A stretch of 64,000 nucleotides of DNA from Candidatus Micrarchaeota archaeon (GTDB taxonomy: Archaea > Micrarchaeota > Micrarchaeia > Norongarragalinales > SBBD01): NCBI GenBank assembly GCA_018819225.1, contig JAHJQN010000004.1, forward strand, positions 194,813-258,812. The letters run 5' to 3'. The notes under the pieces are model-generated. The model saw only the letters and a program-made list of their open reading frames with translations. It was not told the DNA's origin and did no database searches. The translations under genes were made by a program, and so were the position numbers. Numbering within the stretch: the stretch's first letter is position 1; each line of letters begins with the position of its first letter. Shown one piece after another: positions 1 through 60,200 of this stretch.

Positions 1-423
1 TCGATTACTCCTAGTAATAACATCTTTTATCGTTCCCAATCGAACATTTAAATCGGCCTGTTTCCCTTCTCGAATGGCATCTTTGAATGCAATAACTCGC
101 GGATTTTCCATACCGTGATCTCGTAAGTGATCATGAATAGCGGTTAAAACGGAGGACACACGTTCTGACGGAATTCGTGTCAAATGACTTTGTTCTATTT
201 GTAGCAATAGTTGATCTTCAACCATTTTTCCATGAAGGGCGGTCGTAATATCTCTAAAAGTTGCAGATGGAAAAATTTTTCTCATTAGTTTGGTATGCGA
301 CTCTCCATTTCGTCCCAACATTACTATTGGTTCGGTTGGATGCACTATAAAAGTAATGTCTGAAGTCGGGGTCCGAATTAATCGACTGCTTTTCCGAACT
401 ATAATTTCTTCATTCCGATTCAT
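1..423 (-). CDS. hypothetical protein, N-terminal part only (gene continues beyond window start); low-GC
   Basis: Minus-strand reading frame from ATG at 423..421 (MNRNEEIIVRKSSRLIRTP...) runs open to position 1; AT-rich codon usage like neighbouring island genes; no recognisable motif. Confidence 0.4.
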   Translation of the reverse strand, partial: MNRNEEIIVRKSSRLIRTPTSDITFIVHPTEPIVMLGRNGESHTKLMRKIFPSATFRDITTALHGKMVEDQLLLQIEQSHLTRIPSERVSSVLTAIHDHLRDHGMENPRVIAFKDAIREGKQADLNVRLGTIKDVITRSNR

Positions 424-643
424 AATTCCGTTTCTTGTTAAGGGTATTTAAATCAGGCGCTGGGGATGGGAGCAGGAAGAAAAGTTCCGGTCCCTCTCGC
501 AAAAGGAAAGCCCCGGCGGGAACCGACCAAAAAGGTCAAAGCCCTCAATAAAACGACTCGGAAGCGGGAAAAAAAGGCTAAATGAACCTATTCAATAGAT
601 ATACAATAATCAGATCCGCACCATTATTCATTTAAAGCCCTTA

Positions 644-1864
644 ATGAGTATTAAGTTGATGTTAATTGAGCTTCGAATAAAGCCAGGTAAGTTAAAGCTA
701 GTTCGAATGATAAACAAAATTTCTAAAAAATGTCATTTATCAAGTCGAAAAATACACAGAATACCTCACATTACAATATACGGCCCTTTCAAAGGTCGTG
801 GTTCAAATATTCGAAGTATTAATCAGATTTTAGCTCAAATTGGATCAAAATATGGACCATTGGAATTCCAAGTAAAAGGTTTCGAGTGGATGCAGGGCGA
901 GCATGGAAAAGTCATTTACTTCAACATTATACCTTCACCAGATTTAATAAAAATTCAAAAAGAACTTGCGTTTGAATTAAGTACAATTACGCCTAGTAAT
1001 AAAGAATGGGATAAATTTGGAAAATATACATTTCATTCTACTTTAGCATACCGACTAACTGATTCAGAGTTTAAACGCGTTTGGTCTTACGTAAATAGTG
1101 TTCCAAATTTTAAAACTAAAGTATTGAGTTATTTTGGAATTATTAGTCCTGATCGGAAATTTAAAATTAATGATTTTCATTTTCCAATGACTGCGTTCCG
1201 AATTACATTCCTCAACGACTATAGCAAAATCATTTCAGAATATGATTTTGTTACTCATCATATTCTAAATCGTTATGAAGCATTAAACCCAAAAGAATGG
1301 TCTAAAACTTTATGGAAATATCGCATAAATCGCGGAATAGAATTGTCTAACAATATTTCTTCAAAATCCTCTAGCGGACCGTACATAATTAGCGATACTC
1401 ATTTTGGTCATGAAAATATTATCGAGTATTGTATTCGTCCGTTTTCGTCTATTCATGAAATGAATCGAGTACTTATTTCAAATTGGAATCGGATTGTCAA
1501 ACCTAATGATATTGTTTATTTCTTAGGCGATTTATCGTTTGGAAGAAGTAAAAAACCTCCGTCTTATTGGCTAAACCAACTAAATGGAGATATTAGATTT
1601 ATTAGGGGAAACCACGATGACTTAGTTTTGTTAGGGAAAAAACACGAATACATTGATTTTGAAGGGGAAAAAATACTATTAGTACATGATCCAAAAGAAA
1701 AACCAAAAAATTGGAGTGGATGGATTATACACGGTCACAATCATAATAATGATCTTTCACGATATCCTCTGGTAAATAATACGAATAAAACAATCAACGT
1801 TAGCAGTGAACTAATCAATTATTCCCCGATTTCTCTTAAATATTTACTTTCTTTTCGAAAATAG
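644..1864 (+). CDS. 2H phosphoesterase (LigT/2',3'-cyclic phosphodiesterase-like) fused to calcineurin-like metallophosphoesterase
   Basis: N-terminal half has two H-x-T/S-x motifs (HITIYGPF, HSTLAY) typical of 2H phosphoesterases; C-terminal half has MPP motifs DTHFGH, GDLSFGR, GNHDD; AT-rich. Confidence 0.7.
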   Translation: MSIKLMLIELRIKPGKLKLVRMINKISKKCHLSSRKIHRIPHITIYGPFKGRGSNIRSINQILAQIGSKYGPLEFQVKGFEWMQGEHGKVIYFNIIPSPDLIKIQKELAFELSTITPSNKEWDKFGKYTFHSTLAYRLTDSEFKRVWSYVNSVPNFKTKVLSYFGIISPDRKFKINDFHFPMTAFRITFLNDYSKIISEYDFVTHHILNRYEALNPKEWSKTLWKYRINRGIELSNNISSKSSSGPYIISDTHFGHENIIEYCIRPFSSIHEMNRVLISNWNRIVKPNDIVYFLGDLSFGRSKKPPSYWLNQLNGDIRFIRGNHDDLVLLGKKHEYIDFEGEKILLVHDPKEKPKNWSGWIIHGHNHNNDLSRYPLVNNTNKTINVSSELINYSPISLKYLLSFRK

Positions 1865-2138
1865 ACGGTATTCATTCTTCTTTTAAAGAAAATCTATCTA
1901 GCTGCCTTCAATAACAAATCGGTGTATGGGAAGATAATATTCGTCATTCCCATCAACAATCCATAAATTAACGATATAAACTCCTGGCCCATCCGTTAAA
2001 TAATCACCAATTCCTGCTTCGACTTCAAATAAACCCGAAGGATTCGCATTCCATTTTCTTGGATACATGTATCGGGCATCATCTAGAAAATGACCGGGTT
2101 CGATAATTGCGGTTACATAATTATTTTCTAACTTAAAT

Positions 2139-2537
2139 TCACCAGCCGAATTTAATCGGCTTCATAGAAAAACCAAACGGCGATACCCGTTTTCTACGTT
2201 TTTTTCTTTTCATTTTCTTTCTTGGTTTAATCGCTTCTCGGGCATGCCTTTGCATTCGTTGAAACTCAGCCCACGATTTCCTTCCCATGTTCTTGTTACA
2301 TTGATAGCAGAGAACAACCGTGTTCTTAATCGTGGTTTTGCCTCCAGTTGACCAAGCCCGTTTATGTCCAAATTGAGCGGCAGGGTAATCCAATCGTTTT
2401 CGACAATTTTGACATCTTTTTCCTTGTTGAGCCCAAACGATTTGTTTCTGATTCGTCGGAAGTGTTCTTTTGTTATCCCTCCTCGGATCATTAGCCCCCC
2501 ATATCATGCGTTCAAAATTTCGGTTAGTTCCATACAT
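2139..2537 (-). CDS. HNH endonuclease
   Basis: C-x2-C ... H ... N ... C-x2-C arrangement (CQNCRKRLD...HKRAWSTGG...NTVVLCYQCN), basic C-terminal tail. Confidence 0.75.
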   Translation of the reverse strand: MYGTNRNFERMIWGANDPRRDNKRTLPTNQKQIVWAQQGKRCQNCRKRLDYPAAQFGHKRAWSTGGKTTIKNTVVLCYQCNKNMGRKSWAEFQRMQRHAREAIKPRKKMKRKKRRKRVSPFGFSMKPIKFGW

Positions 2538-2563
2538 CTAAATCCCCCATTAAATCTTGATCG

Positions 2564-2860
2564 TTAGAATCTCCAGACTTCATAGCTTCGCTTGTGCTTC
2601 CTATAAGTCTTCCGTTGTAATTTTGAAAGACGTGCTCTACCCGATTTGACTTCTACTAGTTTTTTCTTTTTCCTTCCAGTACGCCAACTACGCTTTGAAA
2701 CCTCGTAGTCAGACCCCCGACCTGTTCTTTTAATACTATAGCCGTGTAGTCCATAACGGGTAATTGCCAGGTCTTCCGCCATCTTGCCTTTTGTTTTATT
2801 TCGAACTAAACGTGTACGTTTTGCTTCTCGCAATAATCCGCCAAGAAGACCCAATTCCAT
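2564..2860 (-). CDS. hypothetical small basic protein
   Basis: 98-aa Lys/Arg-rich ORF co-directional and 27 nt upstream of HNH gene; no motif recognised. Confidence 0.35.
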   Translation of the reverse strand: MELGLLGGLLREAKRTRLVRNKTKGKMAEDLAITRYGLHGYSIKRTGRGSDYEVSKRSWRTGRKKKKLVEVKSGRARLSKLQRKTYRKHKRSYEVWRF

Positions 2861-2979
2861 CTCCTAATGGCAAAGCGTTAAACTCCTTTTTTAAGGCATA
2901 TCCTACAAGAGAGTACAGGGACCTTTTTATTAGAATAAAAATATGAAAATCGATAGTGCACTTTAATAGTTGACGACAA

Positions 2980-3948
2980 ATGGAAGTATATGAAATAATG
3001 TCAACTCCGCCAATAACGGTTAGATTAACGGATAGTGTACATAAAATTCAAAAATTATTTTACAGGCATAAAATTGCTAGTATTTTTGTCGTTGAAAATG
3101 GAAGAGTTGAAGGGCTAGTTACAAGAAAGAACTTTTTTTCAAGTAAACATTTTCTTAGACACAATTCAACTGCAAAAAATGTAATGACAAGAAACGCATA
3201 TACAATTCATTCAACTGCCGGCGTAGATACTGCTTCGGATTTAATGATTCAATATGGTGTCAATAGTCTTGCTGTAATCAGAAGTGGAAAAATTGTAGGG
3301 GTAGTCACCCGATTTGACTTTAATAAACGCAAACGAGAGCATAATCCGCCAACCTACATTCAGTATACGCCAAATCCGCCATCAAACAATAAAAGTTTTG
3401 GTTTTTATATTTTTATAAGCATTATTTTATTGTATCTAGGCTACACTTTTATCTACCCCATTATTGAATTTAGTAATACTAGTTCAATAGAATTTCTAAT
3501 ACACCAAAAAATCAATTATGAACGCGGTAAATACAGACTTCCACATTTAATGTACGATAGTTCATTACAAAGAACTGCAGACAAGCATAGTATAGATATG
3601 GAAGAAAATAATTTCTTCGACCATATTAATAAACAAGGGAAAGATCCCGCTCAAAGACTCTACGAACAAGGATTCTCGTGTTCAAAACAATACGGTAACC
3701 TAATTTATTCAGGCGTTGGCGAAAATATTGCAAAAGAACCAATTTTTAGCCAAAGGGGATTTTTAGCCATTTTTCCATACGTTATTTGGAACGATAAAGA
3801 AAAAATTGCCTCGGCAACAGTGGAAGGATGGATGAAAAGCCCAAGTCATAGAGAAAATATCTTAACTGCTCATTATTCGTCTGAAGGAATTGGTGTTCAT
3901 AGAAGTACTTTTGGAGAGTATTTCTATATAACTCAAAACTTCTGTTAG
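2980..3948 (+). CDS. CBS-pair domain / transmembrane / CAP (SCP, PR-1-like) domain protein
   Basis: Two CBS-like repeats at N-terminus (VVENGRVEGLVTRKNF; VIRSGKIVGVVTRFDF), central hydrophobic helix (FGFYIFISIILLYLGYTFIYPII), C-terminal CAP signature (HRENILTAHYSSEGIGV...GEYFYITQNF). Confidence 0.65.
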   Translation: MEVYEIMSTPPITVRLTDSVHKIQKLFYRHKIASIFVVENGRVEGLVTRKNFFSSKHFLRHNSTAKNVMTRNAYTIHSTAGVDTASDLMIQYGVNSLAVIRSGKIVGVVTRFDFNKRKREHNPPTYIQYTPNPPSNNKSFGFYIFISIILLYLGYTFIYPIIEFSNTSSIEFLIHQKINYERGKYRLPHLMYDSSLQRTADKHSIDMEENNFFDHINKQGKDPAQRLYEQGFSCSKQYGNLIYSGVGENIAKEPIFSQRGFLAIFPYVIWNDKEKIASATVEGWMKSPSHRENILTAHYSSEGIGVHRSTFGEYFYITQNFC

Positions 3949-4032
3949 ACCGTTTTATATTGAGTAGTTAGGGCATTGTGATATCGTGTTCAAACCCGGC
4001 CTGCGGCATAGACAACGGTATACGGAAAAAAG

Positions 4033-5796
4033 CTATTTCGTTGGAATCAATCTCTCCAGATCATGCAAAATATGGGCAACGGATGTCCTCAATTCGTCCA
4101 AAATGTTACTTAACTCCGCGATTGTTACTTCAAGTGTTCCTACCCGTCCTTCAAGATCGGAACTCCCAAAAGGGGTAACCGAAGTGCATCCCTTGCTTTG
4201 TTTCTGAAGCCCCACAAGAGTACACATGTATTCCGTCTGGAACTTATTATTTTTTCCTTCAATGCGACGATGAGTGTAAGCGTTCACACCCGTGCAATAG
4301 AAGTCATAAAACGTGTTGCAAACCTGATTATCGTTAATGATATTATTTCCACTGGATAAAACAATTCCCCTCTCATTTCTGGAAATATCGTTATTCGTAA
4401 TATTAGTATCGGAGGTCACTTCAAGAGCAAGAAATTGATCTCTGAACTTATTACGAAAGATCGTTAGTGTTCCCTCAGAATTACCTAAGTTGGATGCGAT
4501 ACCCACATAATTGTTGTTTATTGTATTGTTCTCAAATAGCGATTGGGAAGCCGAATAATTGTGCCAGTACAGGATGTATCGAATGCCGTACTTGAAGTCT
4601 TGGATGATGCAATTCTTAACTGTTAAATTGCCATGGTGCAAGCTGTCTACTCCGCTGCCGAATCCTGATTCATAACCCGGCCCAGTAATGGAATGACCCT
4701 GACAATCCAAGGTTACGTCGTCTGATCCGATTATGATACAGCTATCGTTGTAGGTATCCACATGCAAGTCTTCTTCCAAGTAAGTGTCTTCGAAAATAAT
4801 ACCGCACGCAGAAGGCTCCGGTTCAGTTTCGTTCTGGGAATTGATTACGAAGTTGTCGAAAACGGAGTCCACGACGCCATCATGGCCGGCAACCGTCTCA
4901 AAAGAAAAAGTGATGGGATACTGATCGGTAAAATCGGTAATAATTGGAGGAGAACCATACACGTGCCACTCATTCGTCTGCGTAATCGTTCCGTTCGGCA
5001 ATATGGTTGTTAAAACGGCGGAAGAGTTACTGAACGAAATGTGGAGCTGGTAGTCTCCCAAATCGTTCCCCAACTGAACTTCCCCGTTCCAATTACCAAC
5101 CCATTTCTCAACCAACGTGCCATCCCTGAGTTTCAAGACCGTGCGAATCAAGCGGTTGCCGGAACCACTCGGGTAATACACGTAATAGGAAAGCTCATTG
5201 CCAGGATAGAATGAATGATTAGTCATAGTCATTCGTGTGCGGGCGTCACGGGCACCAAGCTGGCTGAGCCGATAGTTTTGAGTGAAGTTGTCACGGTAAT
5301 GCAAGTCAACGTGCCCAGACCCAGGCGTGCTTTCGTTCCATAACAGGTTCGTAGCCACTTCGTTGGAAAAGTCGTCGTATAACTGCTCGCCTTCATCTAG
5401 AACTGGAAGAGTCGTAAAGTTCTGGTTAGATGAATTAAGACAACCGAATTCATTGCAGTTCATTGTCATGACGTGATAAGTCGTGTTCGGCTCAAGGTCA
5501 TCGGAAATATTGAAGAAAAATGTTTGATTATAAGGAATACCTGCCCTGTAGTAAGAATACGTGTAATTATTCCAACCGCTACCCTCACCACTTCCAACAA
5601 AAAGAGTTGAATTAGCTGGCTGGTTAGTATACCAAGCAAACCACGCACTCGAACTCGTAATAAAGTAGACAGACAAATTGATCAGTGCAGGCGGTTCCGA
5701 AGGAATGGAAGGCGCTGACCCGAAATCATCTCCAGAAACGTAAGGAAAACTCGCCGCTAAACACAGAATCAATGCCCAAAAGCTAAAACGGTTCAT
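4033..5796 (-). CDS. secreted right-handed beta-helix repeat surface protein with many N-glycosylation sequons
   Basis: Signal peptide MNRFSFWALILCLAASFPYVSG (start chosen at internal Met, codon 5796..5794); parallel beta-helix-like repeats (NNTINNNYVGIASN, NITNNDISRNERGIVLSSGNNIINDN); >25 N-x-S/T sequons. Confidence 0.7.
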   Translation of the reverse strand: MNRFSFWALILCLAASFPYVSGDDFGSAPSIPSEPPALINLSVYFITSSSAWFAWYTNQPANSTLFVGSGEGSGWNNYTYSYYRAGIPYNQTFFFNISDDLEPNTTYHVMTMNCNEFGCLNSSNQNFTTLPVLDEGEQLYDDFSNEVATNLLWNESTPGSGHVDLHYRDNFTQNYRLSQLGARDARTRMTMTNHSFYPGNELSYYVYYPSGSGNRLIRTVLKLRDGTLVEKWVGNWNGEVQLGNDLGDYQLHISFSNSSAVLTTILPNGTITQTNEWHVYGSPPIITDFTDQYPITFSFETVAGHDGVVDSVFDNFVINSQNETEPEPSACGIIFEDTYLEEDLHVDTYNDSCIIIGSDDVTLDCQGHSITGPGYESGFGSGVDSLHHGNLTVKNCIIQDFKYGIRYILYWHNYSASQSLFENNTINNNYVGIASNLGNSEGTLTIFRNKFRDQFLALEVTSDTNITNNDISRNERGIVLSSGNNIINDNQVCNTFYDFYCTGVNAYTHRRIEGKNNKFQTEYMCTLVGLQKQSKGCTSVTPFGSSDLEGRVGTLEVTIAELSNILDELRTSVAHILHDLERLIPTK

Positions 5797-6044
5797 GTAA
5801 CTACACCCCCTATTGGCTACGGACAAACAACATTTTTTAAGGAGTGGCTTTGGTCGATTTCGGTTTGTTCGAGCGCATAACGATTTCAAAGAGGCGAATC
5901 TCGTCGATGGCCAAATAGAGCAGGGCTTAAATAGGGGTTTGCGGTCAGGGCAAGCGGGTGCGAGGCCAAAAGCCAGCCGGAACCGGCTTGGGATAGTAGA
6001 TTATGAGGGAATTATGGCGGGGGGCTTCGCTACCGTGGGCTGAA

Positions 6045-6174
6045 AGCCCCCGGCGAGAATCGAACTCGCGACCTCCTGTTTTCTCGCTCTTGCTTTTTTG
6101 GTCGAGCTTTTCTTAAAGAAAAGGTCGGGTGGCAAGGTTACGAGACAGGCGCTCTTCCGCTGAGCTACGGAGGC
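6045..6174 (-). tRNA. tRNA-Thr(CGU) with ~57-nt intron at canonical 37/38 position
   Basis: Reverse complement reads GCCTCCG-TA-GCTCAGCGGAAGAGC-G-CCTGT-CTCGTA[intron]A-ACAGG-AGGTC-GCGAGTTCGATTCTCGC-CGGGGGC-T; acceptor, D, anticodon and T arms all pair; intron 3' region (GCAAGAGCGAG) pairs with anticodon-loop/exon (CTCG..CTTGC) as expected for BHB. Confidence 0.75.
6098..6129. repeat. palindromic T-rich hairpin motif copy 1 (TTGGTCGAGCTTTTCTT-AA-AGAAAAGGTCGGG), inside tRNA-Thr intron
   Basis: 8-9 bp stem CTTTTCTT/AAGAAAAG; same motif recurs at 6204-6240, 7584-7622, 7842-7882. Confidence 0.6.
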
Positions 6175-6203
6175 ATAAATGTTTTTTCAAATGCCCATTT
6201 CAT

Positions 6204-6240
6204 TTGGCGGAGCTTTTCTTTATAAAAGAAAAGGTCCGCG
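6204..6240. repeat. palindromic T-rich hairpin motif copy 2 (TTGGCGGAGCTTTTCTTTATAAAAGAAAAGGTCCGCG)
   Basis: Perfect 9-bp stem CTTTTCTTT/AAAGAAAAG extended by GCGGAC/GCTCCGC; lies between tRNA-Thr and a 21-nt partial copy of its 5' end. Confidence 0.6.
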
Positions 6241-6244
6241 CTTC

Positions 6245-6265
6245 CTTCCGCTGAGCTACGGAGGC
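6245..6265 (-). repeat. 21-nt partial duplicate of tRNA-Thr 5' end (acceptor + D-stem/loop)
   Basis: cttccgctgagctacggaggc identical to 6154-6174. Confidence 0.7.
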
Positions 6266-6304
6266 AACTTTATTTTTTATGAACCGTTTGTTTTAAATGG
6301 CAAT

Positions 6305-6353
6305 GGGGGGTAGGGGCGACCCGCGTAAGGGGAACTCCCCTTGGAGGGGGTCC
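6305..6353 (+). ncRNA. GC-rich structured element copy 1 (GGGGGGTAGGGGCGACCCGCGTAAGGGGAACTCCCCTTGGAGGGGGTCC)
   Basis: Two hairpins (GGG-GCGA-CCC GNRA-like; AAGGGGA-AC-TCCCCTT); second copy at 48061-48108 with two compensatory base-pair changes in the second stem. Confidence 0.45.
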
Positions 6354-6520
6354 TGGGGTGCGGAGGCATTCTGACAACAAAATGCGCATTGTTTATGGAC
6401 GGCTTTTGTTTAAAAAAACGTTGGATACTGGATCCGGGGATGCAACCAGACATTTAATAATATTCAGGCGCTCTTTTCAATCGTATTTCACGAACGAAAT
6501 CAAGGGAGGCTGATAAACGG

Positions 6521-7433: not shown

Positions 7434-7557
7434 GGGCCCGTAAGAGAAACCATCTCCGGGACGCTCAGCTTGGATAGAGCGATTGCCTCCTAATCACTCG
7501 CGGATTGCAAGTGGAGGGGAAAGCAATAGGTCGTGGGTTCGAATCCCACCGGGCCCG
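7434..7557 (+). tRNA. tRNA-Arg(CCU) with ~29-nt anticodon-loop intron and an unusual 20-nt insert between acceptor 5' strand and D stem
   Basis: GGGCCCG...[20 nt]...GCTC-AGCTTGGATA-GAGC-G-ATTGC-CTCCTA[intron]A-GCAAT-AGGTC-GTGGGTTCGAATCCCAC-CGGGCCC-G; acceptor strands complementary; canonical T loop. Confidence 0.6.
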
Positions 7558-7583: not shown

Positions 7584-7634
7584 TGGTCGAGTTTCCTTCC
7601 CAAGAAAGGTCGTTCAGAATCCCGACCGGGCCCG
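7584..7634 (+). repeat. hairpin motif copy 3 plus degenerate partial copy of tRNA-Arg 3' end (GGTCGTTCAGAATCCCGACCGGGCCCG)
   Basis: TTGGTCGAGTTTCCTTCCCAAGAAAGGTCG followed by T-arm-like + acceptor-3'-like sequence sharing ACCGGGCCCG with tRNA end at 7547-7556. Confidence 0.55.
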
Positions 7635-7673: not shown

Positions 7674-7790
7674 GCGGAGGTCGCATAGTGGCTATTGCGG
7701 CAGCCTGCTATCTTTTTGCAGCGAAGGCTGCGGAAGGTTGGAAAGCTGTTGGCGCTTCGCGCCTCGTGGGTTCGAGTCCCACCCTCCGCG
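7674..7790 (+). tRNA. tRNA-Ser(GCU), class II with long variable arm and ~16-nt intron
   Basis: GCGGAGG-TC-GCAT-AGTGGCTA-TTGC-G-GCAGC-CTGCTA[intron]G-GCTGC-variable arm (GGCGC-TTC-GCGCC)-GTGGGTTCGAGTCCCAC-CCTCCGC-G. Confidence 0.75.
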
Positions 7791-7841: not shown

Positions 7842-7897
7842 TTGGTCGAGCTTTCTTTACAAAGAAAGGTCGTTCGGAATCCTTACCCTCCGCGCTA
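7842..7897 (+). repeat. hairpin motif copy 4 plus degenerate partial copy of tRNA-Ser 3' end (GGTCGTTCGGAATCCTTACCCTCCGCGCT)
   Basis: TTGGTCGAGCTTTCTTTACAAAGAAAGGTCG (8-bp stem) then sequence sharing ACCCTCCGCGCT with tRNA-Ser 3' end. Confidence 0.55.
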
Positions 7898-47749: not shown

Positions 47750-48055
47750 ATGAACCGCGCTCGCATCAAACTCGAAAGCAAGGAATACACGGACTTGGAC
47801 GCGGTCTGCGTTCAAATCAAGGATATTGCCAGGAAAGCGGGCGTTGAGCTCAAGGGACCCATTCCACTGCCGACAAAAAAACTTCGCATCTCTACGCGGA
47901 AGACGCCGTGCGGGGATGGAAGCGACACGTACGAAAAGTGGGAAATGCGCGTGCACAAGCGCTTGATCGAGATCAAGGCAGACGACCGCGTGCTGCGCGA
48001 CATCATGCGCATCCGCATTCCTGATAGCGTCCACGTCGAAATGCTTCTAAACTAG
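47750..48055 (+). CDS. rps10: 30S ribosomal protein S10
   Basis: RIKLESKEYTDLDAVCVQIKDIARKAG...THKRLIEIKA typical S10; tuf-rps10 adjacency. Confidence 0.9.
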   Translation: MNRARIKLESKEYTDLDAVCVQIKDIARKAGVELKGPIPLPTKKLRISTRKTPCGDGSDTYEKWEMRVHKRLIEIKADDRVLRDIMRIRIPDSVHVEMLLN

Positions 48056-48060
48056 TTTAC

Positions 48061-48108
48061 GGGGGTAGAGGCGACCCGCGTAGGGGGTGGAACCCCCTGG
48101 AGGGGTCC
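48061..48108 (+). ncRNA. GC-rich structured element copy 2 (GGGGGTAGAGGCGACCCGCGTAGGGGGTGGAACCCCCTGGAGGGGTCC)
   Basis: Same architecture as 6305-6353; second hairpin AGGGGGT-GGA-ACCCCCT carries two compensatory pair changes relative to copy 1. Confidence 0.45.
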
Positions 48109-48114
48109 GCAGAT

Positions 48115-48168
48115 ATCATGCGCATCCGCATTCCTGATAGCGTCCACGTCGAAATGTTGCTTAACTGA
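48115..48168 (+). pseudogene. displaced duplicate of the S10 gene 3' end (last 17 codons + stop)
   Basis: 41 nt identical to 48003-48043, then ATG TTG CTT AAC TGA versus ATG CTT CTA AAC TAG: same peptide IMRIRIPDSVHVEMLLN* with synonymous changes only; out of frame with rps10. Confidence 0.7.
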
Positions 48169-51201: not shown

Positions 51202-54200
51202 TCATGGTTCAATGGGAACTCCTGCGGATTGTCGCAGGGTGTTCAATGCTTCAGGATACTTCGTATCATCAAACTGTTTTTGCGCCACAGGAATCGCGTC
51301 TTCCACAGCCTGCGGGCATCCATCGTTGATACACCATTCGCGGAAACGCTTTAATAAAGCCTCCACTGCCTCTTTCGGCGATGCTGGAACCAAAGTCACT
51401 GCGTTCGTAACCGTTGCACCCGTGACCGTCGTGAAAACAGGTGAACGGAAGTCCAGTGGATCCGAGTAAGAATGAACAAGAGAAGGATCGGGAACAAACG
51501 AAGAGGCAACAGGAACATTAGGATCAAACATCGACGTAATGAAATAATCAGGGGACACTCCTTTGTTGAAAGAGGTCACTAAATTGTATTGAGGAATTCC
51601 GGCCAAAACCGTTCCTTCAGTAAGATAAAGGCACGCGTGTTCGGAATCCGGACACAATTCTTCCGTGTCCACCCGGTTCGCGCATTCATTCAAATCCTTT
51701 TCATTGCGGAAACAGTATTCTTTCATGGAAGCGGCTTGGCCTTCCTCATTATGGTATACGACGAGATGGTTCCCGAAACGGTAATCCAATTCAGCGCGCA
51801 CGGGACGCACTTCCGTGTAAAACAGCAAGGGCGCAACCAGTGATCCTATCAAGCTGATACCCCGGAAACTTTTCTTTGTAAACGACGACTCCTTAACTGC
51901 GTTCCCAACGGAGCGGAAACGTCCGGAGCGGGAACGAACCGCATCGAAATCATCGGCAAGCGTTTTGGATGCTTGTTCAACGGCATCGTCGAATTTAGTC
52001 AGGGTTCTAGCTTTCGTGGCGCGATCGCGTACGTGCTCAATGATTGCGCGTTCTTCCGTATTTGTCAATGCGCCACCCAAAGCATTCCGCAGTTTACCGT
52101 TCAATGAAGTGCGAACAAATCTGCCACTTCCGCCTTTGATTTCATTGACGGCCACTTCATCGTAATTGCGCAATACGTTTGCAAGTTCGTCGGGGGTGAG
52201 AATGCGTCTGAAATCGAGGTCAATAGGTCCTGCAGTTTGAGAATATAATTTCCATAATTCATCCGACACCGCTGACGGTCGGGCATCGCTCCTAAGGAAA
52301 GCAGATAACGTTTCCGATTTTCCATATAAATTATAATTTGGAGGCAGACGATTATTAATTAATTCATCCACTACTTTTTCTCGTATATTTGGATCCCTAT
52401 CAAGGGCGGTGAATAAACTTCTAATCTTGGTATTGAATTGATCTTGCGTCGGGGCTATTGTCCGAGATACGTCGGTGAGTTCATTATAGAGCGTCGTACG
52501 AGTTCCGGGTGCGGTAAGATCCACCCAGGCATTCATTCGCGCCCGTCCGTCCGCTCCAGAAAGGAGTTGAGTGAAATCATTGACGCTGCTTCTTGGCACA
52601 AGAGCAGTTTCTCCCGGGGTATGAATCAAGTTGACGAGCGCACGAGAAATCGTTGAGGAACTAATCGTGCCGCCGGCTGTTTGGGTATAACGAGTGACCA
52701 AAGCGTCCGCGAATTCAAGCGACATGCCTTGGTGCATGAAGTAATCGGTCATAAACGCTCGGCTGCCGAACGGACGGAATACTTTGGAAGCGCCCGCCAC
52801 AATGGGAACCGTAGCAGGAGTAATACCTGGTGCGAACTCGCTATCTAGGACCGTATTCGAGCCTCCGAGAATGGCACTTAATGCACCAGTAACCGCCAAA
52901 TTACCGATCAATTCATTACCTCCTCGACGTGCCACCTGACTGGCAAATGTACTAGAGAGTAAGCCGCTGGCTCCAGTTATTGAATTGACTCCAGGAACAG
53001 CACCGGTTGGAAGAACCAAGTTAAGATAGAAATCAGTTAGAGCAAATGTTTGGAACGAAATACATGCATTGATTCCTTCGCATATTCCGACGCGTGAAGG
53101 CGCAAGGGAATCAACGGCAATGGATGCGGTACAACCCGTGATTCCGGTAACCAAGCTGTAAACGCCCTGCGCAAGACGAGGGGCGAATACGGGAGCGGCA
53201 AAAATGCTTCCGACAATTGCGACTAATGCGCCCGGAGCACCAGCTAATAATAATGCACCGGTTGCTTTTCCTCCGTTTTCAATGCAGGCACCCGTATCTT
53301 CGAATGGAACCGCCTGTGATAAGGGGTAATCGTTGTATCCGTAAAGGGTGTTCAACAGCAAATCGGCGTGCCGTTCATCATCCGCGCTGGGCGCTTCGCG
53401 GTATGGACCAATAGAGAATATGCGGAATTTTTCAAAAAATCCAGTATCCCCTTCCCGTTTCTTATTGGTCCAAATAATGTGCGGATTCGGTTCTCTTCCA
53501 ATGATGACTTCCGGCGTGTCCGCGGTCAACAGGTTCGTGTTGTACAATTTTTCCTCGCATGCAAGAAAACGAGTTGGAGAAGGCAAAGAGCTGTCCACAT
53601 GCATTTCAATGAATGAAGATTTCAACCACTCCTCCTTATTAGGTCGTAGCTCACATAGACCCAGGCGCGCAGTTGCAATGTAAATACCGCATTGATCGGC
53701 AGTACCCGTTGCAGTATATTTGATTGATTTCTTGCCGCCGACAAAACCGAATTCACCTAAACCTTCTTGGAAAGCGGTTTGAAGATCGTTCAAATTGATT
53801 TTCGTGTTCGCCATTTGAACGACAACGCTTTTACGGTAATCGCGGTTGAATGCGCGAACAACGGGATCGGATGGATTGCAGAACTTATTGAGCTCTTCAT
53901 TGAATTTTTCGTCTTCTTGTGTATAGAAGGTTGTTATGAGTTGAGCCACTTGTGCTCCGAATCCCTTGAAAGCTGCTTTCGCCTCATCTGCAGTGCAGAA
54001 GTTTGTGGAACAGGGTATGACCGCGTCAGCCACTCGAATAATCCCTGACGGAACAACAGAAACTGGAGTGGTTGGAGCACTTGCAGGCGGAACAGATGGT
54101 GCAGAATGTGCCGGCACTGCTGGTGCGGGTGTTCCCGGGGGCACACCACTCGCAGGCGTTAATGATGGAGGCATAGCGGGTGGATCGCGGAGTATAAGAT

Positions 54201-57200
54201 CCCCAAGCGGTGTGCCGGAAAAGAGGTTTTTCATAGCAGGGTTCGCGGGATCGATTTCATACGATTCAACATTTACGAACTTGGAGTCCGTTTTTCCGTT
54301 GATGGATCCTTTGAACTTGATCTCCATGTATCCACTCCACGGGCGCAGAGACTCGCATTCTGAAATATAGCCTTCTCCGGCACGCAACGAAGTGGGAATG
54401 TCGCATCGTAAGAAACCGGTTCCGTTAGCGGAATAGGTTTGATAGTTAAGCGTCACCGACTCATCGAGATTGTTGGCCATGGAAATCCATCGCTTGTGAC
54501 CCAAATCCTTGAACACCAGTTTTTGGGGCGCCGTGGTTTTCACGTTTTGTTGCGAGCGGTCATAATTTACGTAGAAACCACCCAGCGCGTCTCGAAGTTG
54601 AGCGCGAAGAGAGCCTACGCACGAACCGGTTTTCTCGAAGGTGAGAATCAGTTTAGCGGGAACGAATTGCGCGCCGCTTCCCCGGTAATCATAAAATATT
54701 TTGACGTCGCCTTCCAAGGGACCGAGTTCATCCAACTTCTCTTGAGGCAACAAACAGCCATCATCATCCGTATACTGTTGAGGTACTTGAACCGAGAACA
54801 AGAATTGCTGCACCTGGCAAGCCGCATCCTCATTCTTATCCTGTTGGGCTTTACCCGCCAGAATCATGTGCGCGCCTTCATCCCAAGCGCTGGGTTTGCG
54901 AATCTTTCGAATCACGCCCTCCAACTCGGAACTAATGGACTCGCCAGAAAGCGCGTTACGGCTTTCCGCAGTCCAGCTCTTCTCGTCCTCATCACCGGAA
55001 ATATCCATGTAAACGCTTACTTCCGAAGGAGCGTCATTCAATACGCAGAATCCTTTCTCCACGATTCCTTCCACGTTCGAATCCGTGAACTCAAAGGTTT
55101 GCTCCTTGGGCTTGATGCGAATGGGCACGAAATTATCGGTAATCATGGCGAAGCCATCCGGATTGCGGGATGGACGCTCGCATAAAATCAAGGTAGTCTT
55201 CGAATCGGCGGGAACGGAGATCTGCTGGGGTTCGTCCTTCTCTTTCGGAAACGGATTCATGTCAGAGAACCAAATCTCTTTCACTTGAGGCAATTGATAA
55301 CTCGTTTCGCCGCGGACATTGATTTGTATTTCGCGGCACCCCTGCAAGTCAACGCGTTTCGTCATGCTATGGATTTCCGTGCTCACCTCCGGCGCGTCCT
55401 CAGGCAATAAGTATACGACGTCATCCGTGAACGTGGCGTGGAACTTGTATTTCTTGTCCGTATCCTGGCAGATGCGCGTCACGAACCGCGTGTCGACCGG
55501 AATGGAGAACGTGACCGCGTCTTCCGTTTCATCCGCTTTTTCGACGTCATCCGCCATCAAACGCATGCCATTGAATTCAAACAAATCATTCTCCGCGTTG
55601 TCTTCCATTGCGAGCTCCGTGCAAATGCTCAAGCGGTAAGACTGCATGATGTCGCCATTCTTTTCGAACGGTTCCTCAAGGAACTTGTCGAATGTTTCTT
55701 GCGGAACATTCACGTCCACATCATTCGGGAAGTGATGAAAAACAAAGTCAACGCCTTGCAAGCCCGCAAGGTCCTCATCGATCATGACGAACGTGATGGG
55801 AACATTGCGTTCCACGAACAAATCCTTGTACGGTTCAGCGGCTTGCAATACCGGTCGGAAGGGAAGCTCAACGTTGTAACTGTACGTCGTAACCGCGTTC
55901 TTGACCACGCGGGCGTTCACCGGAAAGTGCAAGACGACATCCTGCGGGAACGTGACCGTAAAGCGGTCCTCCCCGAAGCGTTGTTCCTCTTCCTGTAACA
56001 TGCTGTAATCGAATACGATGGACACGGATGGCGGTACTTTGAGGTCGCGGCGTTCGCCGAATTCCTCATCTTCAATCGAAGCGCCTTTGACGAGCATGCG
56101 TTGGTTGGACGGGAATTCTAACAGATGGCGGTCATCCTTTACGCTATAGCGCGCGTTGACGTTGAACGGCAACGTCATGTCGAAACCGACTGGCAAGCGC
56201 TTTTCATTACCCGTCATGCCAAAGTCAGGGCGACCGAAAATAATTTGAGTGAGAGGCATGACTTCGACCGTCCGGGAACCGTCCGGCGCTTTCAAGCCCG
56301 CACGAGCGACTCCGTTCAAGAAACTCATTTCCAGGTAATCCGTGGAAATGCTTTTCGCGCGCACGCCATCCGGAGCAATATTCAAGGATACTTCAGGGCC
56401 GTCGCGTACCAAGAATAGGACGCGGAAAGGCAGGCTCAGAACGATCTCGCCGTTATAGGTTCGTAATGCGAACGGCGATGGAATGCGCAAGGCACTACCG
56501 GCTGGAATCGTGACGCGTTTGAAATCACGCGCGTCCATTGAAATAATGGCATCGGAAGGCAACGAAATCGTGTTTCCGCTTTGGAATTGAAGGGCTTTTC
56601 CTCCGCTAAAACTGTCTTTCTTGACGCGAATGAATTCCTCGATGATGAACGTGGCTTCAACGGGGAACTCGACTTCTAAAGCGTCTTGAGAGGAAATGAT
56701 GGGCGTCAACGAAATCTGAATGGGTTGGTGCGCGTTGACGCGGACGCGGCGTTCTTCACCCGAATAGGGGCGATATTGAGTGGAACTCGTCGGGTACTTG
56801 ATGTCGAAATCGTTGATGGAAGCCGTTTCAAAAGCCCCTTCGCGAGCAAACTCGGTTTCCGTTGGGAAATCGAGGTATACGACGACGGGCAAGCGGAGTT
56901 CCCAACCGTATTGCATGAAGTTGCGCTGGTAAGGCGATAGGTAACTACGGTACGTATTGTAACCTTGCACGGGAATGCGTCGCGCATAGCGGGCGGGAAC
57001 TTCAAAGAAAGCGCCGGAAGGAATGACGGCCACTAGACTGCCGCCTCCTTGCTCGATGGAAAACGTGAAGGTGCTCGAGTAAGGCGAGGATTGTTGCAAA
57101 TCGTTGAGATCTCCCACGCGAACGTCTGCATCAAACAGCATGGTGTCCCCGCTCGGAAGCTCAATGAAAGTCGAGCCATCCGGATTAGTATGCGTAAGCG

Positions 57201-60200
57201 TATTGGGAGGCAATTGCAAGACGATTTGCATGGGAAGCGATATGCGCACGCCTCCACTCACGCTTTTCACTTCGGGTTCGACGGCTTGGCAAGTGTGATC
57301 AATGGCGGCCTCGCTTTCTCCGCATTCGAGGAACTCGCACACTCCCGAAGAACAGATTTCATCATTGGAACATTCATCATCGGCAACACAGCCGGGTTCA
57401 GGGGTCGGAGTGAACGTGACTCCTGCCGGATAGATTTCCACGCGAGTGGAAAGGCAAGCGAGATTGCCGGCTTGTGCGCGAACCTCGTAACGACCCTTCG
57501 AACTGTAGTAACAGGAGGCCGTGCAGCTACCCGTGGTTCCCGTGCAACTCACGGCATTGGATGTGCGGCCGTTACCGCAATTTACGACAACGACGTTTGG
57601 GGCGCGATTCAAGTCATAATAGTCAACAGTAATGGTACTCGTCCCTTCTTCCTCAATGCGGTTCGGATCCGCATTTAATGCACAAGTGGGTACTAACGGA
57701 GTGGGAACCGGAGTCGGCGTCACGAATTCCGTTGGTTCGGGAGTTGACGTCGGATCCTCATCGCCCGCATGCACGTCCCTGCAATTTTCGGATGAAGACG
57801 CGGTATACGTAAGTCCGACGCGCTTGCGGGACGTGATTCCGAGCGTGCTCGCGTAAAGCGTTAATGTACCGTCGCGTTCATCGTCCTCTAGATCGCACGG
57901 ATCCACGGGATACGCGCGCGCCACCACCTTAAATTCCGCTGAATCCCCTGCGGCAATGGTTTGCGAAAGCGGTTCCATGTATACGTTGGAGAGCGTGCTC
58001 TGGTAATTGATGAGAATGGGATAATCGGCGTCGTTGGTAACGACCATGGTTTGCGTGTCACGGGGTTCGCGAGGCGGTTTCAAGGTAAACTGCAGGGAAT
58101 CAGCTGAAGCAGACCACAACGCCTCCAAGTCCTGTTGGGTAAACGAAGAGGCGATCGTGAACGGAACGGATTCCTCTTGGTCGTAGCTGCCCAAGCGAGC
58201 TCGTACGAGGAGGCGGCCGGAAACGGTTTCGGATAGAGTGTTCGCACGAGCTGCAACGGGCAAAATAGTATCGAGAATGCGGGCTCGCAAATTGATGGAT
58301 TGGGTATCGCGCGCTTTCAAACGGAAGGAGGAAAGGTCGACGGATACGTCCGTATACTGGGGGTTGCGTCCAAACTGCATTTGAACGGAAACGCGTACTT
58401 CATTATCCAATAGGTTAGTGACGCTGAAACCTTGTTCTTGATTGTCGGTCGAATCAACGGTTAATGACAAGGTTTCCCCTTCCACGGAAATGAGTTCATC
58501 GCCAGTGACGCGCAGGAAACCGCGTTTGACCTTAAAGCCTTCGGCCTCGACCTGGTAGGTGACGGTCCCGATCGCGACGGGGTGAATGCCTTCCACGCGG
58601 TACTGGGCACTGCCATCCCGACCCTCGGAAAAAACGCCTTCAATGATGGCGCCGCGGAGGGCATCATTCCCGTTTCCAACGGATACGTAGGCATGAGAAA
58701 CCGGCAGCCCCAATGAATCTTCGACGGCAAACGTCACCATGTTGTCTTGAAGTGCTTGCAATGAAGACGGACGATTCGTCACTTTGAGATCGGGTTTGGT
58801 GCCGACCACGCGGACGTACAGCGAACGAGTGATCACGGTTTCCGCGTTGCGTACTTGAAGCTGCAATGCCACGTCATTCGAGAGACGCTGGGCTTGAATC
58901 AAGAACTGGCCTTCCGCATTGTCTTCAGAAGTCGTAATAGTGATCAGTTCCTGATCGCCTGCGGAACGCGCCACCGCGCGACTTCCACCGGATGAACCTT
59001 CCGTTAACGTGATCGATTCGTCGAGAGCAGATGAAGAAAGCTCGACCACGGTTCCTCTTGGAGCCGCTACGTGGAATTGAAGCGAAAAGGTTTCGCGAAT
59101 TTCCGCCTCATAATTATCCAAAGCGCGCCCATTTTGTCCTTCGAAGAAGTAATCCAAACAAAGATCGTCTTCACATAATCCACCAAATGAAATGGGTGCG
59201 GTAATCGTTTTCATGTTCGCGAGAATGGAAGATGTCGAAGCGGTTTCGTCGAGGGGATCGCGAAGGGTTTCGCGCGCGGTGTCGAAAGCCGAACGGTATT
59301 GCAACATAGCCGTTCCATCGGAAACCGCTTTGGTTCGCACAAACACCGCGATTTCCTTCGTGCCTTCAAACGGTTGGAACGTGAAATGAACGTATTTATA
59401 CGCGGGCTGGAATTCCGGATCCGCGAACTCCAATTCCTCCGCAGGCGTCGGGGAAGGCGTTTCCGTAGGGACATCCGTAACGATAACGGGGGACAAATCG
59501 TATAACGTTCCTTTTGTGACGAAAGCCGTGCCGGCTTCGTAACCAACGATTTCAACGAGCTCGTTATCCAGCGAAGAATCCGCTGAACCGACGCGCACGT
59601 GAACTTCAGCCCTTGAAACGTCGACATTGGGGCGAGTCAACAAGAATTTGGCTTTGTAAACCGTTGAAGGCGATAACGAAGAGGCTTTGTTGCTCTTCAA
59701 ATCATACAATCCCTGGAAAACGATTTGCGATCCTCGGGCGCCGGAAGGCAGCAGTTCAAACGAATCCCGATTCGTGATCCCGGGAATGACTTCAAATTCA
59801 GACGATAGCAAGGTTTCATACCCTTCCAGGGAAACGCGAGCAACATAAAACCCTTCCAAGATATCCACCGCGCATTTACCGCGTTCCGTGACGCACGAAT
59901 CCTCTTTAATAAACGTTCCGCCGGAAAACGATAATTCAACGAGGGCACCATCCAGAGATTGATTCGTAAAGTAATCATAAACGGAGACGACGAGCTTGGC
60001 TTTTCCGGGCTGCAAGATCACTTCAATCAAGTTGACTTCAGGTTCTTCCCCGGTTCCGTCAATCGAAATCAATTCCGGATTACTTTTTCCTTCCCGGCCC
60101 GCGAAACTGGCTTTGACAAAAATGCGTTCCAACGGAACATCGGGAAAATCAGCGGATCCATCGGCGGACGTGAACTTTTCGGAGATGCCCATGGGTTTCC

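Follow-up and report, generated by a model that had tools for sequence, protein, structure and literature searches.

DPANN archaea carry many disrupted tRNA genes, and Fujishima and colleagues reportedly described in 2010 families of introns in the Thermoproteales that recur in different tRNAs and at different positions. The gain and movement of archaeal tRNA introns, and the origin of multi-intron and split genes, pose a long-standing question with scant direct evidence. The subject here is an intron-containing tRNA-Thr(CGU) gene, together with two truncated copies of its 5' end, in 64,000 nt of a Candidatus Micrarchaeota archaeon (assembly GCA_018819225.1, contig JAHJQN010000004.1, positions 194,813 to 258,812), this whole stretch being referred to as the window. 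The copies are separated from each other and from the gene by two short structured elements, E1, which is GC-rich and has two stems, and E2, a T-rich hairpin. The reading favoured, with moderate confidence, is that mini-elements of the intron type were inserted twice by recombination, in nested fashion, and that each insertion left a displaced gene end behind.

The closest published case is a tRNA-Thr fragment in Caldiarchaeum, where the 5' fragment of tRNA-Thr-F lies beside a 1.8-kb recombinase insertion and an intron was gained at position 24/25 (Sugahara et al. 2012, PMC3293823). Fragments of tRNA genes left by integration are a general phenomenon, with examples in the Thermococcaceae (PMC9897764). 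The scars of SSV/pNOB8-type elements resemble the present locus in the partial tRNA copy, the published example even being a tRNA-Thr 5' fragment, but those inserts are 1.8-23 kb in length, code for a recombinase and have one target each, whereas the insert here is a non-coding repeat of 30-50 nt. Archaeal tRNA introns that transpose are alike in that the same core occurs in different tRNAs and positions and in that removal depends on a bulge-helix-bulge motif; the difference is that E1 and E2 are new DPANN families also found outside genes, in 16S and by protein genes. A broad-specificity splicing endonuclease is attributed to the host clade (PMC3488258). New here are the miniature non-coding inserts, their dual life as intron core and gene-end stub, the rRNA and protein-gene sites and a self-contained T-loop splice design. 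No published description of either family was found in full-text literature searches, which is a weak negative.

Read on the minus strand, the order at the locus is copy 1, E1, an AT-rich segment, copy 2, a reversed E2, a 31-nt spacer and the intact gene (Table 1). Rfam places the 58-nt intron at the canonical position 37/38, and in folding the anticodon stem, an AAA bulge, a central helix and a 3x1 loop make up a relaxed bulge-helix-bulge motif. ARAGORN reported zero tRNAs across the whole window. The 21-mer GCCTCCGTAGCTCAGCGGAAG has two exact occurrences (6154-6174 and 6245-6265) with 0 expected by chance, and alignment extends the match of copy 2 to approximately tRNA position 26 once a 2-nt indel is permitted. 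Copy 1, ATGCCTCCGcAcCcCAG, is a 17-nt match with three mismatches, and three such matches were found against 0.07 expected. The earlier note on this DNA had reported the complete gene (6174-6045), its 21-nt copy, a GC-rich element and a palindromic hairpin, all of which exist as described, the last two at 6305-6352 and 6207-6239; the 7-nt acceptor copy that it placed at 6360-6366 is also present, one position away at 6361-6367 and within the 17-nt match. Not mentioned there are E2 copy A in the tRNA-Thr intron, copies C and D with their spare 3' ends, the kinship of the AT-rich stretches before the two tRNA-Thr copies and a second E1 at 48061-48107. An independent Logan assembly (L001; loci and contigs are given L numbers) is 100% identical to the locus over 7.3 kb, so that the locus is not an artefact of one assembler, and JGI contig L184 is identical to the window across the tRNA-Thr intron hairpin. 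The assembly artefact that the earlier note had named as a danger to its reading is therefore ruled out.

The AT-rich segments 5' of both copies are putative promoters on the strength of their sequence. In relatives a TATA-like box directly precedes the tRNA at the position equivalent to 6266-6304, and 6388-6415 aligns to the segment before copy 2 with a score of 31, a value that the top-scoring one of 300 shuffles also reached. The 31-nt spacer resembles both the AT-rich region 5' of copy 2 and an A-rich flank that is conserved in the E2 family, the relationship to AT-rich stretches being weak (borderline against shuffles).

Fragments that begin exactly at tRNA position 1 behind promoter-like upstream regions, in a DPANN host with many disrupted tRNA genes, raise the possibility that they are the halves of a split tRNA-Thr joined in trans to 3' halves. 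This is hardly credible, since an intact tRNA-Thr lies 91 nt away and the fragments end at positions 15-26, before the anticodon, and would add no decoding capacity. The sequence after the stub also folds on itself and offers no leader for trans pairing, and copy 1 is degenerate. Split tRNA genes are recognised by the lack of an intact gene and by complementary flanks; here the intact gene adjoins.

Both inserts are members of dispersed families. E2 has the plus-strand form TTGG(T/C)(C/G)GAGCTTT...AAAGGTC(G/C), a T-rich hairpin of ~30 nt with a foot of 3 bp, a G.G mismatch and then CUUU/AAAG. There are exactly four copies in the window, all at its three tRNA genes; two of these (C and D) lie 3' of tRNA-Arg and tRNA-Ser, 1.3-1.7 kb from tRNA-Thr. 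A pattern scan of JGI metagenomes with the E2 base gave at least 118 loci. Among the matches listed there were 92 distinct hairpins with 84 different tips and a constant foot, and approximately one third were on contigs of low GC content that also bear genes for archaeal rRNA, RNase P RNA and tRNAs. E1 is ~48 nt in length with the form GGAC(A/C)CC..GGGG-loop-CCCC..ACGCG(T/G)GTC GCCyCTACCCCC. A scan of GTDB genomes for E1 gave mostly chance matches in GC-rich bacteria, and only contigs of Micrarchaeota or labelled 'archaeon' were used from among the matches listed. Alignment of 20 copies from Micrarchaeota contigs revealed two stems, one nested in the other, and covariation of the outer one, where A-U is exchanged for C-G. 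E1 and E2 are described here as miniature structured families native to Micrarchaeota/DPANN, and they are primarily the cores of introns of the splicing-endonuclease type.

The intron contexts are diverse. E2 was found in anticodon-loop introns of tRNA-Asn (L168/L241), tRNA-Gly (L158) and the tRNA-Thr of the window, and its core in introns of tRNA-Thr, Asn, Gly, Met and Leu, a Gln-like tRNA and a spacer tRNA-Ala; in L166 it lies in the 16S-23S spacer. In seven of the listed E2 matches ...GGTCG is directly followed by a T-loop-like sequence (control rate 0.001-0.007), and the opposite strand of those seven carries intact tRNAs with a T-loop intron at ~59/60 that starts with the reversed hairpin. 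The layout is ...TTCGAA/CGACC...CTCGACCAA...GGAAA/TC..., with slashes at the intron borders. These introns, from at least six tRNAs, have a canonical bulge-helix-bulge fold (found for L246, L221, L196 and L166), and in folding the UUCG universal to T-loops pairs with a 3' segment belonging to the intron itself. Such a guide segment (CGGAAA) would render the intron spliceable in any tRNA. E1 occupies T-loop introns of tRNA-Asn (L036) and tRNA-Leu (L105). E2 copy A and the T-loop introns lie within RNA genes and are bounded by a bulge-helix-bulge motif, whereas the two upstream stubs of the window lie outside the gene; the recurrence of one core in different genes and positions is as in known introns of this type, and removal of E1 and E2 by the endonuclease is predicted.

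An archaeal 16S gene in L146 is interrupted in the conserved loop region of helix 23 by a 56-nt insert containing E2. It occupies ~1815-1870 of that contig (16S at 966-2518, minus) and consists of the reversed hairpin and an A-rich flank bordered by GTAAAA/CTCAAAA; it must either be spliced out or be tolerated as an expansion.

The same elements stand at the ends of complete genes. E1 or E2 was found at tRNA-Arg, Ser, Lys, a Leu-type tRNA, 5S rRNA, 16S rRNA, uS10 and another protein gene, and E2 abuts tRNA ends in L143 and L224. For E2 the order is complete gene, flank, E2, spare 3' end and the same flank again, as seen with tRNA-Lys, the Leu-type tRNA, tRNA-Arg and 5S rRNA (L179 with tRNA-Lys and a 36-nt perfect repeat, L136 with 5S rRNA, L140 and L250). 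For E1 it is spare 5' end, E1, TATA-like box and gene, as seen with tRNA-Thr, tRNA-Arg and one protein gene. At the 5S rRNA of L136 two dissimilar E2 variants part three units with near-identical flanks. In genuine introns each element meets the exon with a fixed end, ...GGTCG in E2 and GGAC... in E1, and it is this end that adjoins the spare fragments. In the orientation of E2 the complete gene lies to the left and the spare fragment to the right regardless of gene strand, with E1 following the mirror rule; E2 is sense when downstream (7/8) and antisense when upstream (4/5). A strict survey of 25 archaeal tRNAs, a biased sample, gave a 5' copy upstream in four, a 3' copy downstream in five and a copy on the wrong side in none of the 25.

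These observations bear on the idea, put forward in the earlier note, that the copies were left by site-specific integration at a tRNA attachment (att) site. In its classical form an integrase-bearing plasmid or virus would have repeatedly entered the 5' part of tRNA-Thr and deletions would have left 50-90 nt, and an integrase element with the attP GCCTCCGTAGCTCAG beside E1/E2 would favour it. What speaks for it are direct repeats of the tRNA end, one complete and one partial, the replacement-end signatures at the coding repeats discussed below, an HNH endonuclease in a segment of 35% GC that lies 2-4 kb from the 3' end of the tRNA, and published cases of repeats of 44 bp and of a 5' fragment of tRNA-Thr beside a recombinase insertion (PMC9897764, PMC3293823). 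It is nevertheless distinctly unlikely. In L179, L136 and L009 the repeats are separated by the element of 30-50 nt and nothing else, and the inserts of the window are 48 nt and 33 nt long rather than coding for a recombinase. One att-specific integrase cannot explain the same elements at the ends of many genes (tRNA-Arg, Ser, Lys and Leu-type, 5S, uS10 and the other protein gene) and in introns. Scans of open reading frames (ORFs) with Pfam, PHROGs and NCBIfam detected no integrase, transposase, Cas1 or reverse transcriptase in the 64-kb window, in keeping with the remark of the earlier note that no integrase is nearby, and neither a distal tRNA-Thr repeat nor a tRNA-Thr 3'-end copy bounding a larger island was found there. 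What survives of that note's idea is that tRNA copies flank inserted DNA and that relatives show indels, and what falls is an att site of an integrase specific for tRNA-Thr, the inserts being members of two dispersed families at many genes and inside introns. A viral origin was also considered, and IMG/VR scans with both element patterns gave three matches with no tRNA and in unrelated context, which were taken as chance.

The gain and loss of the inserts was followed in syntenic loci of relatives, retrieved via homologues of OapC, a homologue of which is encoded near tRNA-Thr together with an A-type ATPase. Indel polymorphism, which the earlier note had asked for beforehand, is present. In L002 (OapC 55% identity) the tRNA-Thr(CGU) intron is without E2 and the upstream copies and both inserts are missing. 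L005, L006 and L007 have a spare 5' copy (degenerate in L007), E1, a TATA-like box and tRNA-Thr, and the 91-nt E2 unit is missing. L016, a tRNA-Thr(GGU) from the same metagenome-assembled genome as L005, has both inserts and every part of the window locus in its order, from copy 1 and E1 through the TATA-like box, copy 2 (2-nt indel included) and the reversed E2 to a homologous spacer and the gene; its modules are colinear with those of the window over ~230 nt. E1 is therefore present 5' of tRNA-Thr in L005, L006, L007 and L016 and missing in L002, and from this presence/absence polymorphism it follows that the two inserts are separable units. Comparable arrangements exist at tRNA-Arg: tRNA-Arg(CCU) of L009 and L061 has a 20-nt exact 5' copy and E1, and in L005 a T-rich hairpin is followed by a 17-nt exact 3' copy, laid out as in the window. 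In L006, 15 nt of the 3' end of tRNA-Thr also recur exactly (~5545-5562), 119 nt 3' of the gene (5681-5752, minus), so that with its 5' copy and E1 this tRNA-Thr has stubs on both sides.

The architecture that the window and L016 have in common, down to the 2-nt indel, could suggest functional RNA modules, in which a pre-tRNA leader or trailer guides processing or termination, serves as a decoy or contains a 91-nt unit that is spliced out. A TATA-like box lies 5' of copy 2, so that copy 2 and E2 are probably transcribed as a leader, the T-runs of E2 could terminate archaeal transcription and the repeated UCCGUAGCUCAGCGGA segment is self-complementary. This is very unlikely to account for the locus, for the modules come and go between close orthologous loci (L002, L005), spare copies decay (copy 1 of the window, L007) and the orientation rule depends on how the DNA is laid out, whichever way it is transcribed. 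The same signature is also met at protein-gene ends, and no wobble-pair bias that would reflect a strand preference of E2 at the RNA level was found in archaeal copies. Splicing-out of the 91-nt unit was rejected, as a cofold of the two 5' copies gives 2x2 loops and not clean 3-nt bulges.

Repeats at protein genes have a coding history. In the window the second E1 sits between two 57-nt copies of the end of uS10 (gene at 47750-48055), and all six differences between the copies are silent, an outcome with P = 2.5e-5 if substitutions were random. L115 has the first 16 codons of a protein gene duplicated ahead of E1; this spare and the gene differ at 14 positions, nine of them third positions, with five amino-acid changes (P ~1e-3). 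From these patterns it follows that both copies of each repeat evolved as coding sequence, and neutral drift of a fresh duplicate is rejected for the coding repeats; fill-in target duplication or replication slippage with later drift is a poor match to the silent-biased differences. The e14 and phage 21 prophages carry a replacement icd end, and icd and icdC differ almost only synonymously (PMC13626634). The uS10 and L115 repeats bear the same signature, that of a replacement gene end or else of recombination between diverged alleles, as judged by this analogy, the difference being that e14 is a 15-kb prophage with an integrase whereas here there is ~50 nt between the copies. An exact-protein look-up of uS10 for polymorphism in close relatives matched only the source contig.

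Local tandem duplication would be another origin of the repeats, if hairpins stalled replication or promoted template switching where highly transcribed genes begin or end, leaving the element at the junction, and gene conversion later kept the copies alike. Arrays do exist (2.5 units at the 5S gene of L136 and 47-nt arrays in L178 and L216), there are junction microhomologies with the E2 ends (T-runs, and GGTCG vs AGGTCG, GGTTCG and CGTCGG) and repeat lengths vary from 16 to 59 nt. It is unlikely all the same: a drifting fresh duplicate should not differ at silent sites only, the E2 copies between the near-identical flanks of L136 are different variants, and the presence of one family at unrelated junctions needs the extra assumption of templated insertion.

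Under two nested insertions, E1 and then the E2 unit would have been inserted successively at the 5' edge of the essential tRNA-Thr gene. Each stub would be one half of a gene end that an element had interrupted and that recombination with an uninterrupted version then bypassed; by an equivalent route, the element would have arrived together with a replacement gene end. Either way the gene would be kept intact and the displaced terminus left behind with its promoter-like segment. With the recombination join placed in two A/T-rich stretches, the remainder beside the element and the promoter region, this reading would account for the hybrid spacer, the promoter-like segment before each copy, the orientation rules, the allelic-type differences and the patchy distribution. 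The E1 insertion would be the older event because it is common to L005, L006 and L007, and the 91-nt unit of copy 2, E2 and spacer would be later or more labile because it is missing in L005 and present in L016. A third E2 would reside harmlessly within the canonical tRNA-Thr intron. Since the ancestral TATA-like box now lies 5' of copy 2, the tRNA is probably made with a ~91-nt leader, which RNase P would then remove; this is judged from the arrangement of the modules.

Several points weigh against nested insertion. The loci were fetched through the elements themselves or through synteny and form a biased sample. Flanking repeats at 10/20 E1 copies, above the 95th percentile of shuffles, count in its favour, but only 2/34 low-GC E2 copies have them and none are detectable in the other 32/34 or in half of the E1 copies; insertion therefore does not by itself entail duplication, and a fixed long target-site duplication for E2 was rejected on the same count. 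The scans of the window revealed neither a recombinase nor a reverse transcriptase or transposase, which leaves the proposed mechanism without an enzyme. No intact gene was found with an intron at the positions implied by the stubs (~15/16 and 26/27 in tRNA-Thr, 53/54 in tRNA-Arg and tRNA-Ser). In the protein-gene cases the interrupted allele would need an insertion in the coding region to be tolerated, and the 21-nt identity could be due to gene conversion rather than history.

A more tentative proposal goes further, namely that E1 and E2 are archaeal introns that actively move, of which unspliceable insertions survive only when recombination or a co-transferred replacement end rebuilds the gene. 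If true, the loci would be genomic footprints of the spread of protein-spliced introns and of the origin of disrupted and split tRNA genes. The two families link splice-motif introns, integrase-type gene-end duplications and dispersed hairpin repeats, which are usually studied apart, and the loci are concrete, testable substrates in organisms with a broad-specificity splicing endonuclease.

Of the dispersed repeats, those of the repetitive extragenic palindromic (REP) and miniature inverted-repeat transposable element (MITE) kinds are similar in being short, non-coding, dispersed and hairpin-forming with many variants per genome, but differ from E1 and E2 in the latter's strong association with stable-RNA genes and introns and in the long, variable gene-end repeats. 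Terminal inverted repeats and a fixed short target duplication, as expected of MITEs and other derivatives of insertion sequences, were not seen, the repeats being 16-59 nt when present. With respect to REP/RAYT and IS200/IS605 systems, the foot of E2 is conserved and its G.G mismatch constant, and there is no Y1 (HUH) transposase in the window. With OapC encoded nearby, origin recognition box (ORB) repeats were considered for E1 and rejected on placement, as E1 is dispersed (6.3 kb and 48 kb), occurs in tRNA introns and stands before unrelated genes. Membership of a known RNA family was likewise rejected: Rfam at E<=10 over 5-9 kb gave only the three tRNAs and weak noise, and a 19.8-bit YrlA match among the latter is accounted for by the T-arm.

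Table 1. Features of the tRNA-Thr locus, the neighbouring tRNA genes and the uS10 repeat (positions within the window)
Feature	Position	Strand	Basis or remark
tRNA-Thr(CGU), intact	6045..6174	minus	Rfam RF00005, 54.2 bits, anticodon CGT
tRNA-Thr exon 1, intron, exon 2	6139-6174, 6081-6138, 6045-6080	minus	Rfam
E2 copy A, within tRNA-Thr intron, antisense to tRNA	6100..6128	plus	missing in L002 intron; L184 identical
Spacer from hairpin B to tRNA, 31 nt	6175..6205	minus	alignment; L016 has homologous spacer
E2 copy B, between copy 2 and spacer	6206..6240	plus	14 bp, one G.G mismatch, -19.7 kcal/mol
tRNA-Thr spare 5' copy 2	6238..6265	minus	21 nt exact at 6245-6265; ~26 nt with 2-nt indel
AT-rich promoter-like segment 5' of copy 2	6266..6304	minus	TATA-like ATTTAAAA at 6291-6298
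E1, GC-rich two-stem	6305..6352	minus	core 6318-6352, C-rich tail 6305-6317; 20-copy family alignment
tRNA-Thr spare 5' copy 1, degenerate	6353..6369	minus	14/17 positions match
AT-rich segment 5' of copy 1	6388..6418	minus	related to 6272-6297
tRNA-Arg(CCU), extra intron(s)	7434..7557	plus	Rfam match 7458-7557, broken acceptor; comparison with L003, L002
E2 copy C (7585-7613) and tRNA-Arg spare 3' end TTCAGAATCCCGACCGGGCCCG (7613-7634)	7585..7634	plus	
tRNA-Ser(GCU), intron-containing	7674..7790	plus	Rfam, 44.2 bits
E2 copy D (7844-7872) and tRNA-Ser spare 3' end TTCGGAATCCTTACCCTCCGCG (7873-7894)	7844..7894	plus	
uS10 last 18 codons and stop, functional copy of 57-nt repeat	47999..48055	plus	PF00338
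Second E1 copy, directly after uS10 stop codon	48061..48107	minus	
uS10 spare 3' end	48112..48168	plus	6 differences, all silent, including TAG to TGA

Tandem arrays of E2 with a 47-nt period stand at the ends of two contigs, of 173 kb and 268 kb, from sample Ga0180009 (L178, 13426-13542; L216, 1-130), and 77-nt units stand in tandem after the 5S gene of L136 (330-440). Such arrays coincide with assembly breaks, and L184 also ends within the tRNA-Thr 5' repeat. The elements explain both the breaks at these genes and the failure of standard tRNA finders here.

In most E1 copies a TATA-like box lies within 0-20 nt downstream of the C-rich tail (GCCyCTACCCCC). This was seen in L042, L102, L115, L126, L016, L005, L041 and the window (6291-6317), and several of the downstream genes look leaderless; E1 may be a deliverer or a marker of promoters.

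A large share of the listed hairpin matches (83/122) came from high-GC bacterial contigs, where hairpins with the same foot and a GC-rich tip lie 5' of genes for bL20, uL24 and cytidylate kinase, end 1-3 nt before ATG/GTG and are always sense to the gene, e.g. L192 6306-6343, L204 8859-8892 and L153 3337-3374 (range L133-L250). Approximately 45 nt 5' of them CGCTAR...GGAGG is found, possibly with a tiny leader ORF (..FWSSFC..), and wobble pairs favour the sense strand by 15 to 7. The bacterial hairpin is possibly a separate element of the 5' untranslated region, regulatory or mobile, that shares its foot with the archaeal family.

The 3' trailer of tRNA-Thr holds AAGCCCCCCGCCATAAT, complementary to the tRNA's own 3' acceptor/T-stem strand, and 6011-6027 and 6044-6060 form a 17-nt inverted repeat (82%) that could fold back onto the 3' end of the precursor. 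In the neighbouring tRNA-Arg(CCU) the true 5' acceptor strand GGGCCCG was located at 7434-7440, ~20 nt 5' of the Rfam match, which points to a non-canonical intron near position 9/10; the orthologue in L003 has three introns (~9/10, 37/38 and T-loop).

Positions 1-4400 of the window have a GC content of 31-41% as against ~50% elsewhere and are possibly foreign DNA. They lie 2-4 kb past the tRNA-Thr 3' end, with no tRNA-Thr repeat at the borders, and encode a LigT-like 2'-5' RNA ligase fused to a metallophosphatase (644-1864), a CBS-CAP protein and the sole two nuclease-like products of the window, an HNH endonuclease (2139-2537, minus) and a weakly VRR-NUC-like ORF (2564-2860, minus). Towards the other end of the window a single ORF of 3453 aa (51202-61563, minus), inside which a chance match to the E2 foot occurs at 59036, encodes a giant protein typical of DPANN surface proteins.

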